Shown: one piece after another, positions 22,173-22,975 of the stretch
Position numbering within the stretch: position 1 is the stretch's first letter
Layout of the letters: each line of letters opens with the position of its first letter
Assembly (NCBI RefSeq): GCF_003334405.1
Contig: NZ_QOWM01000001.1
Direction: 5' to 3' (one strand)
DNA length: 64,000 nucleotides
From: Escherichia coli
GTDB taxonomy: Bacteria; Pseudomonadota; Gammaproteobacteria; Enterobacterales; Enterobacteriaceae
Made by a program: the position numbers and the translations under genes
Notes under the pieces: generated by a model
Told to the model about the DNA's origin: nothing
Database searches by the model: none
What the model saw: only the letters and a program-made list of their open reading frames with translations

Positions 22173-22273
22173 AACCTCAATGATTTATTTTTATACAAAC
22201 TATGTTACGTGCTGTAACAGGAGCGCGAAGTGTAGGGTCTGAGGTACATCTTAGAAATCAGACCAGTGGCGAG

Positions 22274-22292
22274 AGTATAGGTCGGACCAGCT
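22274..22292. promoter_or_regulatory. Candidate FadR operator in the fadL promoter (reverse complement AGCTGGTCCGACCTATACT)
   Basis: Matches the FadR consensus core CTGGTC-N-GACC; a second weaker TGGTCTGA element lies about 20 bp upstream. Confidence 0.45.
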
Positions 22293-22537
22293 GGAATGTT
22301 GCAAGTATGTTTCTATCTTTTTTCAAATATGATCTAAGAAACGCGATCCAGCTGGCAAAATTTGGAGGTGGCGCACTCATGGATTCGGGTGAATTTTGTT
22401 TTAGATCATTTTTAAGTGTGATTTCGGTCACTTATCCGATTTTGCAGAATTAACAACTGGAGCAGCACTTTCCGGAAGCGTAAAATATCCACAACGTTTA
22501 TCTGGCACCTTGGGTGCACATACAGAGGAAATCAACG

Positions 22538-22822
22538 ATGAGTAAATGTAGTGCTGATGAAACCCCGGTTTGCTGCTGTATGGATGTTGGCACCATTATG
22601 GACAACTCCGACTGCACCGCGTCTTACAGCCGCGTGTTTGCAAACCGCGCAGAAGCAGAGCAAACGCTGGCGGCGCTGACTGAAAAAGCCCGTAGCGTGG
22701 AATCTGAACCTTGCAAAATCACCCCGACTTTCACTGAAGAGTCTGACGGTGTGCGCCTGGATATCGATTTCACTTTTGCCTGCGAAGCTGAAATGCTGAT
22801 TTTCCAGCTGGGTCTGCGTTAA
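22538..22822 (+). CDS. yfcZ: Small conserved protein YfcZ (UPF0381 family)
   Basis: ORF track 22514-22822; start placed at the internal ATG giving 94 aa (MSKCSADETPVCCCMDVG...). Confidence 0.8.
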   Translation: MSKCSADETPVCCCMDVGTIMDNSDCTASYSRVFANRAEAEQTLAALTEKARSVESEPCKITPTFTEESDGVRLDIDFTFACEAEMLIFQLGLR

Positions 22823-22841
22823 TTCCTCTCGGGTACGTACG

Positions 22842-22877
22842 CCCCTGTCAGTTGCTGGCAGGGGCGTTTTCTTTTCT
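22842..22877 (+). terminator. Rho-independent terminator after yfcZ (GCCCCTGTCAG...CTGGCAGGGGC + T-rich)
   Basis: GC-rich inverted repeat followed by TTTTCTTTTC. Confidence 0.55.
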
Positions 22878-22959
22878 CTTCTTCTTTTCTCTCTGTGTCA
22901 TAGCTCCCACTTTCCCTTTTCTCCACTTGGCTAAATGTAAAAAAATGGTTAAGACTATG

Positions 22960-22975
22960 ATCAGGTCAGACCACT
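22960..22975. promoter_or_regulatory. Candidate FadR operator upstream of fadI (ATCAGGTCAGACCACT)
   Basis: GGTCAGACC core resembles the FadR half-site arrangement; about 30 bp upstream of the fadI start. Confidence 0.4.

Follow-up and report, generated by a model that had tools for sequence, protein, structure and literature searches.

FadR control of fadL and fadIJ in Escherichia coli is already known, from experiment in the case of fadL and from expression, sequence and position in the case of fadIJ; as textbook lipid regulation, it carries little weight as a discovery. At fadL, two operators designated OL1 and OL2 have been described (DiRusso et al., 1993; Feng and Cronan, 2012). FadR has equal affinity for both, its binding is abolished by oleoyl-CoA and the gel-shift results agree with earlier DNase footprints, with derepression of fadL having been reported in fadR mutants or by oleate (Feng and Cronan, 2012; PMC3460868). 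According to a 2022 review, FadR directly represses fadL and fadIJ via sites overlapping the transcription starts, and the same review credits both the fadIJ site and FadR-dependent induction to Campbell et al. (2003) (PMC9329746). Comparative genomics has named fadL and fadIJ as the operons common to the FadR regulons of lineages extending to Shewanella and Vibrio. The same protein also uses a related 17-bp box as an activator site at fabA and fabB, the fabA site being located around -40. Unlike these activator sites, the fadL and fadIJ sites cover the -10 element and the start, so that FadR represses.

The window analyzed here, a 64,000-nucleotide (64 kb) stretch of E. coli DNA, contains fadL and fadIJ, which flank the small gene yfcZ. 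Over 22100-23100 it matches E. coli K-12 MG1655 at 100% identity, and the locus occurs at no less than 95% identity in every one of 5426 complete E. coli genomes, where the annotation is always fadL, yfcZ, fadI. The first two genes are divergent, with a spacer of 371 bp from annotated start to annotated start, while yfcZ and fadIJ are co-directional and separated by 180 bp. Four transcription starts were placed using the 51 nt ending at each start in the supplementary table of Kim et al. (2012; PMC3415461). A simple promoter scan recovered none of the four experimentally mapped promoters, its sole match (22358-22329, minus strand) fitting no mapped start. For the FadR sites, every 17-mer on both strands was scored against the published 17-bp consensus aaCTGGTCnGACC(T/A)Gtt (PMC9329746). 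The genes and the elements controlling fadL and fadIJ are as follows, in window positions.

22166, minus strand: annotated start of fadL, with an in-frame ATG at 22172
22252-22268, minus strand: FadR operator 2 of fadL, CACTGGTCTGATTTCTA, consensus match 11/16, 7 bp from operator 1
22267, minus strand: fadL transcription start, 248 reads, 5' UTR of 95 nt to the ATG at 22172 (Kim et al., 2012)
22276-22292, minus strand: FadR operator 1 of fadL, the 17-mer AGCTGGTCCGACCTATA, consensus match 13/16, second best in the window
22538-22822, plus strand: yfcZ, 94 aa, from the RefSeq annotation of the identical MG1655 sequence
22894-22909, no strand assigned: CRP-like box TGTGTcatagcTCCCA (TGTGT-N6-TCCCA), centered at -61.5 of the fadI start, 84% mean identity
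22927-22963, plus strand: fadIJ promoter, with -35 TTGGCT at 22927-22932, a 17-bp spacer, -10 TAAGAC at 22950-22955 and the start at 22963
22960-22976, plus strand: FadR operator of fadIJ, ATCAGGTCAGACCACTT, consensus match 14/16, the best in the 64 kb
22963, plus strand: fadI transcription start, 3 reads, 5' UTR of 40 nt (Kim et al., 2012)
23003-24313, plus strand: fadI
24313-26457, plus strand: fadJ

On the fadL side, the 11-mer CTGGTCNGACC occurs exactly once in the 64 kb, as CTGGTCCGACC at 22280-22290 on the minus strand. The gel-shift probes fadL-FadR-site1 and fadL-FadR-site2 from the primer table of PMC3460868 map exactly to 22268-22302 and 22241-22275, enclosing operators 1 and 2, respectively. 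When compared to the published OL1/OL2 pair, the sequence and the position are the same, base for base across the probes at 22241-22302, and no difference was found. Relative to the fadL start, operator 1 occupies -25 to -9, overlapping the -10 hexamer TATACT (22279-22274), and operator 2 occupies -1 to +16; the 5' UTR length of 95 bp on which this numbering depends is also quoted in PMC3460868. At 11/16, the second site is too weak a match to be called from sequence alone. A first-pass annotation of the same DNA had placed one FadR element at the fadL promoter, at 22274-22292, and one at the fadI promoter, at 22960-22975, and proposed that the two mark fatty-acid-responsive promoters. Both elements are real and lie within 2 nt of their true extents (22276-22292 and 22960-22976), the former being the only exact copy of the 11-mer and falling within a published probe, the latter being the best consensus match. 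Their identification as FadR operators is borne out by gel shift for fadL and by review assignment for fadI (PMC9329746). The second fadL operator at 22252-22268 was missed, even though it lies inside the interval which that annotation covered, so that one of the two fadL operators had been listed. The FadR footprinting it proposed as a check has already been carried out for fadL. For calibration, the outcome is that two of three operators were located without recourse to databases, within 2 nt.

The fadI element carries one mismatch to the 11-mer on either strand and covers -3 to +14 of the fadI start, in a promoter whose -35 and -10 hexamers are 99 and 94% conserved. The site attributed to fadIJ (yfcYX) by Campbell, Morgan-Kiss and Cronan (2003), as that work is cited in PMC9329746, is likewise a single 17-bp site over the start, and the sequence here is that of K-12. 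A search of the accessible literature found no in vitro FadR binding experiment on the fadI site. We infer from the sequence, the position, the conservation and the FadR-dependent expression cited by the review that the site is a FadR operator bound directly by the protein. A CRP site has been reported as identified in the fadIJ promoter (PMC9329746), and the box at 22894-22909 is probably that site; its position resembles that seen in class I CRP-dependent promoters. The main text of Li et al. (2019), the paper cited for the CRP site, does not name fadI.

Short palindromic matches can arise by chance, and it may be asked whether the elements have any regulatory role at all. In favor of such a view, the 11-mer with at most one mismatch occurs at 7 sites in the 64 kb against 2.1 expected, and a 12/16 match at 58225-58241, within the hisQ/hisM coding region, is probably a chance match. 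The other 11-mers with one mismatch (3718, 9543, 47216 and 47837) all scored below 12/16 as 17-mers and were set aside, those at 47216 and 47837 falling inside or bordering the usg and truA coding sequences. Simulating the window with a first-order Markov model gave an expectation of 0.36 sites per window scoring at least 13/16 and of 0.04 scoring at least 14/16. Only 5% of the simulations produced two or more sites with a score of at least 13/16, while the window has two, at 14/16 and 13/16, and these are its two best 17-mer matches. Position adds far more than match score, given that both of the best sites overlap mapped starts of fad genes, as do all three sites when operator 2 of fadL is included. 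The published FadR binding already refutes the chance reading at fadL.

Conservation points in the same direction. A comparative set of one genome per species, obtained with YfcZ as the query, gave 80 loci from Escherichia, Salmonella, Citrobacter, Klebsiella, Enterobacter, Kosakonia, Kluyvera and other genera, and spacer alignments comprised 78-81 Enterobacteriaceae species or sequences. The fadL-yfcZ pair is divergent at every locus with enough flank, and in all those loci fadI is found downstream of yfcZ, usually at about 160-190 bp, with a greater distance of up to 1.7 kb in a few (the latter in locus L033). Mean identity reaches 98.5% at the fadI site (78 species), 96% at fadL site 2 (81 sequences) and 89% at fadL site 1, i.e., 89-98% for the sites, against 69-79% for the spacers, the yfcZ-fadI spacer averaging 69% and the fadL-yfcZ spacer 79%. 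In the yfcZ-fadI spacer, only 0.6% of all 17-mers reach the conservation of this fadI site. At fadL site 1, the half-sites are kept in the 81 sequences and the variation falls mostly at the unspecified center base and one flank. In terms of consensus score, the fadI site stays at 13/16 or better in 77 of 77 aligned full-length 17-mers and fadL site 1 at 12/16 or better in 79 of 81, with fadL site 2 ranging from 10/16 to 12/16 in all 81 and being present also in a more distant locus (L089). The sites combine a consensus match, a repressor position over the -10 element or the start and conservation at orthologous promoters, as FadR operators do. A chance origin is left with a vanishingly small probability, and what the interval contains is very probably the set of FadR operators already described for two fad regulon units of E. 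coli.

A different question is whether the boxes are used mainly by other regulators of the GntR/FadR family, namely LldR at fadL and PdhR at fadI. Genomic SELEX has detected an LldR peak in the yfcZ/fadL spacer; the boxes proposed for LldR there coincide exactly with the two FadR sites, and the mRNA levels of fadL and yfcZ changed with the LldR level (PMC10272880). A PdhR SELEX peak has likewise been found at fadI, with fadI and fadJ mRNA decreasing in a pdhR mutant. Against this, the LldR box consensus AAnTGGTCnGACCAnTT is nearly that of FadR, so that in vitro cross-binding is to be expected, and the proposed PdhR box has a different sequence from the FadR site. That PdhR box, cAgcGGTaaaACCtgac (23007-23023, 7/14 match), lies within the first codons of the fadI coding sequence, at approximately +45 to +61 of the fadI start, and is distinct from the FadR operator. 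Binding by FadR and release by acyl-CoA have been demonstrated at fadL, and oleate and FadR control of fadIJ is cited in the review (PMC9329746). Main use of the boxes by LldR and PdhR is accordingly very unlikely, and the two proteins are an addition to FadR control rather than a replacement for it. FadR may not be the exclusive occupant of these sites, considering that, in vitro, LldR is reported to bind the fadL boxes and PdhR a box within the first codons of fadI.

Operator positions over the -10 element and the start are standard for repression by blocking of RNA polymerase, which is the mechanism favored here for both units. When long-chain acyl-CoA is absent, FadR dimers would occupy the two adjacent 17-bp sites over the fadL -10 element and start, and one dimer would occupy the single site over the fadIJ start, in both cases keeping RNA polymerase out. 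Acyl-CoA formed from imported fatty acids would then release FadR and derepress the two units together. CRP-cAMP would add activation, from -61.5 at fadIJ and from a shared upstream site at fadL. Between them, yfcZ constitutes a separate monocistronic unit, with a promoter and a terminator of its own and a control region shared with fadL.

A third FadR box was found elsewhere in the window, with a palindrome-like sequence directly after it.

41784-41800: third FadR box, GGCTGATCGGACTTGTT, consensus match 12/16, 68-84 nt upstream of the fabB ATG at 41868
41801-41820: palindrome-like sequence CGGCGTACAAGTGTACGCT

We take GGCTGATCGGACTTGTT to be the known FadR activator site of fabB and CGGCGTACAAGTGTACGCT to be the FabR site of the same gene. 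With the fabB box recognized in this way, the window holds three FadR-controlled promoter regions.

The intervening gene, yfcZ, had been suggested in the first-pass annotation to be constitutively expressed between two FadR-repressed units, on the grounds that it has a terminator of its own (given as 22842-22877) and no FadR-like site directly upstream. The elements relevant to this proposal are the following.

22327, plus strand: yfcZ minor start P2, 10 reads, 5' UTR of 211 nt
22413-22434, no strand assigned: CRP site TAAGTGTGATTTCGGTCACTTA, centered at 22423.5, i.e., at -156.5 of the fadL start and -69.5 of yfcZ P1
22481-22493, plus strand: yfcZ main promoter P1, with -10 TAAAAT at 22481-22486 and the start at 22493, 15 reads, 5' UTR of 45 nt
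22839-22877, plus strand: yfcZ intrinsic terminator, a 13-bp stem at 22839-22867 followed by the T-run TTTTCTTTTCT

Both observations behind the proposal hold, the features described in that annotation being accurate to 1-3 nt. Downstream of the yfcZ stop codon, a stable G+C-rich hairpin leads directly into a T-run and predicts an intrinsic terminator at the 3' end of the gene, with a folding energy of -24.9 kcal/mol (z = -5.6) that was equaled in none of 200 shuffles. The hairpin and the T-run are kept in 76 of 78 species despite a stem sequence that is only 62% conserved, which indicates that the terminator is real and structurally maintained. With a strong yfcZ terminator and a start of its own for fadI, read-through from yfcZ is not needed to explain fadIJ expression. 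As regards FadR, the best consensus match in 22293-22537 is 9/16, and nothing resembling a FadR site is present within 200 bp of the main yfcZ start. An insulated, constitutive yfcZ would also be in keeping with the perfectly conserved -10 hexamer of P1 (100% in 81 sequences) and with the listing of the spacer among "constitutive" promoters in RpoD- and RpoN-type genomic SELEX.

The evidence on the other side comes from the CRP site. The probe fadL-CRP-site1 maps to 22403-22447, enclosing this site, and was bound by cAMP-CRP in gel shift (PMC3460868). The authors of that study assigned the site to fadL at -157 and called the distance atypical and too far for normal activation (PMC3460868). Relative to yfcZ P1, the same site is placed at -69.5, about 2 bp off the -71.5 usual in class I CRP-dependent promoters. 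Its mean identity is 95%, and the 56.5 bp between its center and the yfcZ -10 hexamer are identical in 75 of 78 species. In our reading of 22458-22463, P1 has no good -35 hexamer, a property that fits activator dependence. The yfcZ mRNA has moreover been reported to vary. It changed together with that of fadL in an lldR mutant and in an overproducer by RT-qPCR (PMC10272880), both mRNAs decreased about 3-fold by RT-qPCR under nitrogen depletion (PMC8743547) and a 3-fold change in yfcZ was reported for growth transitions in O157:H7 (PMC2241611). No yfcZ entry was found in the supplements of Sastry (2019) and Yan (2018). Relative to the minor start P2, FadR site 1 is additionally centered at -43, close to the position of the fabA activator site, and FadR site 2 at -67. 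Little weight is given to this arrangement, since the putative P2 -10 hexamer, TATCTT (22314-22319), is only 53% conserved and the start has few reads; a fabA-like activation of yfcZ by FadR from -43 was down-weighted on these grounds and is at most conceivable. The divergent pairing with fadL is, furthermore, kept in distant lineages. Constitutive, insulated expression consequently appears unlikely, and yfcZ is probably regulated. CRP dependence with partial co-regulation with fadL is the more likely arrangement when weighed against constitutive expression, and CRP presumably acts on yfcZ itself.

The control region between fadL and yfcZ also shows a constraint on its length. The CRP center and FadR site 1 are 140.5 bp apart in 78 of 78 species, with the intervening stretch 22345-22395 being only 61% conserved. 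Indels are common in the neighboring yfcZ 5' UTR and in the yfcZ-fadI spacer, and with the spacing fixed in their midst, the length of the fadL/yfcZ control region (22284-22486) appears to be constrained.

YfcZ belongs to the YfcZ/YiiS family (DUF406, PF04175) according to the Pfam tag on its homologues, and its paralogue YiiS has a solved structure (2k3i). Beyond the Enterobacteriaceae set, an exhaustive protein search found only 108 cluster representatives of DUF406, the word-indexed search having reached close YfcZ relatives only, and neighborhoods were examined for distant full-length members with readable contigs. Three distant DUF406 genes, with 64, 44 and 43% identity, are divergent from a gene of the FadL family (PF03349), with no fadIJ directly downstream (locus L086, 2424-4288; L089, 2343-4297; L091, 1934-3794). 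One further distant member lies about 1.7 kb from a FadL-family gene, and the remaining distant members examined had unrelated neighbors or short contigs. FadR-like boxes upstream of fadL persist in some of the distant loci, with none upstream of fadL in the Pasteurellaceae-like locus L086. Because distant lineages keep the fadL pairing without an adjacent fadIJ, the stable association of yfcZ appears to be with fadL rather than with fadIJ, and this gene-order pattern is a hint that YfcZ and FadL are linked in function.

Taken further, the 140.5-bp spacing, the distant pairing in three lineages and the co-variation of yfcZ and fadL mRNA suggest a reading in which yfcZ is a conserved divergent partner of fadL and the two share a control region of invariant length. 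The main role of the CRP site assigned at -157 would then be class I activation of yfcZ, FadR at site 1 would also modulate yfcZ, and YfcZ would be an unrecognized member of a fatty-acid uptake module. This reading is advanced tentatively and is perhaps the less probable outcome. The rigid control region shared with the fatty-acid channel gene fadL and the distant pairing offer an inexpensive, testable clue to the function of YfcZ (DUF406).

Within the fadL leader, a block at 22203-22241 (+27 to +65) is 92% conserved in 81 sequences. The palindrome TGTTACgtgcTGTAACA (22203-22219) inside this block is the published "CRP site 2", whose non-binding probe maps to 22182-22237; CRP failed to bind this probe in gel shift (PMC3460868). 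Conservation without CRP binding suggests a different role for the block, for instance as a hairpin in the leader mRNA or as a target of an sRNA or a protein.

With regard to the strain background, collinearity with MG1655 begins at window position 17112, at the argW tRNA-Arg gene (17116-17187), and from 17112 to 29100 the two sequences differ by 3 mismatches and a 24-nt gap only. Left of this point (window 1-17111), no alignment was obtained to the 988 bp of MG1655 compared, where MG1655 carries the prophage integrase gene intS. The window chromosome is K-12-like but is not MG1655. An Rfam search gave the tRNA at 17116-17187 as its sole match, with no RNA family assigned within the studied interval. 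The 24-nt gap is an in-frame deletion in fadL at 21578/21579, which takes out QSPAGQTQ (precursor residues 197-204) and leaves the protein otherwise identical to that of MG1655. The deleted DNA has a TTGC direct repeat at its bounds and includes one of two TTTGGCCAGCA repeats. The exact window allele of fadL occurs in 0 of 5426 complete E. coli genomes, the best match being a short allele carried by 43 genomes at 99.0% identity. The gene table in the start-site supplement of Kim et al. (2012; PMC3415461) describes FadL as the receptor of phage T2, and in light of this annotation the deletion could be a selected loop variant.
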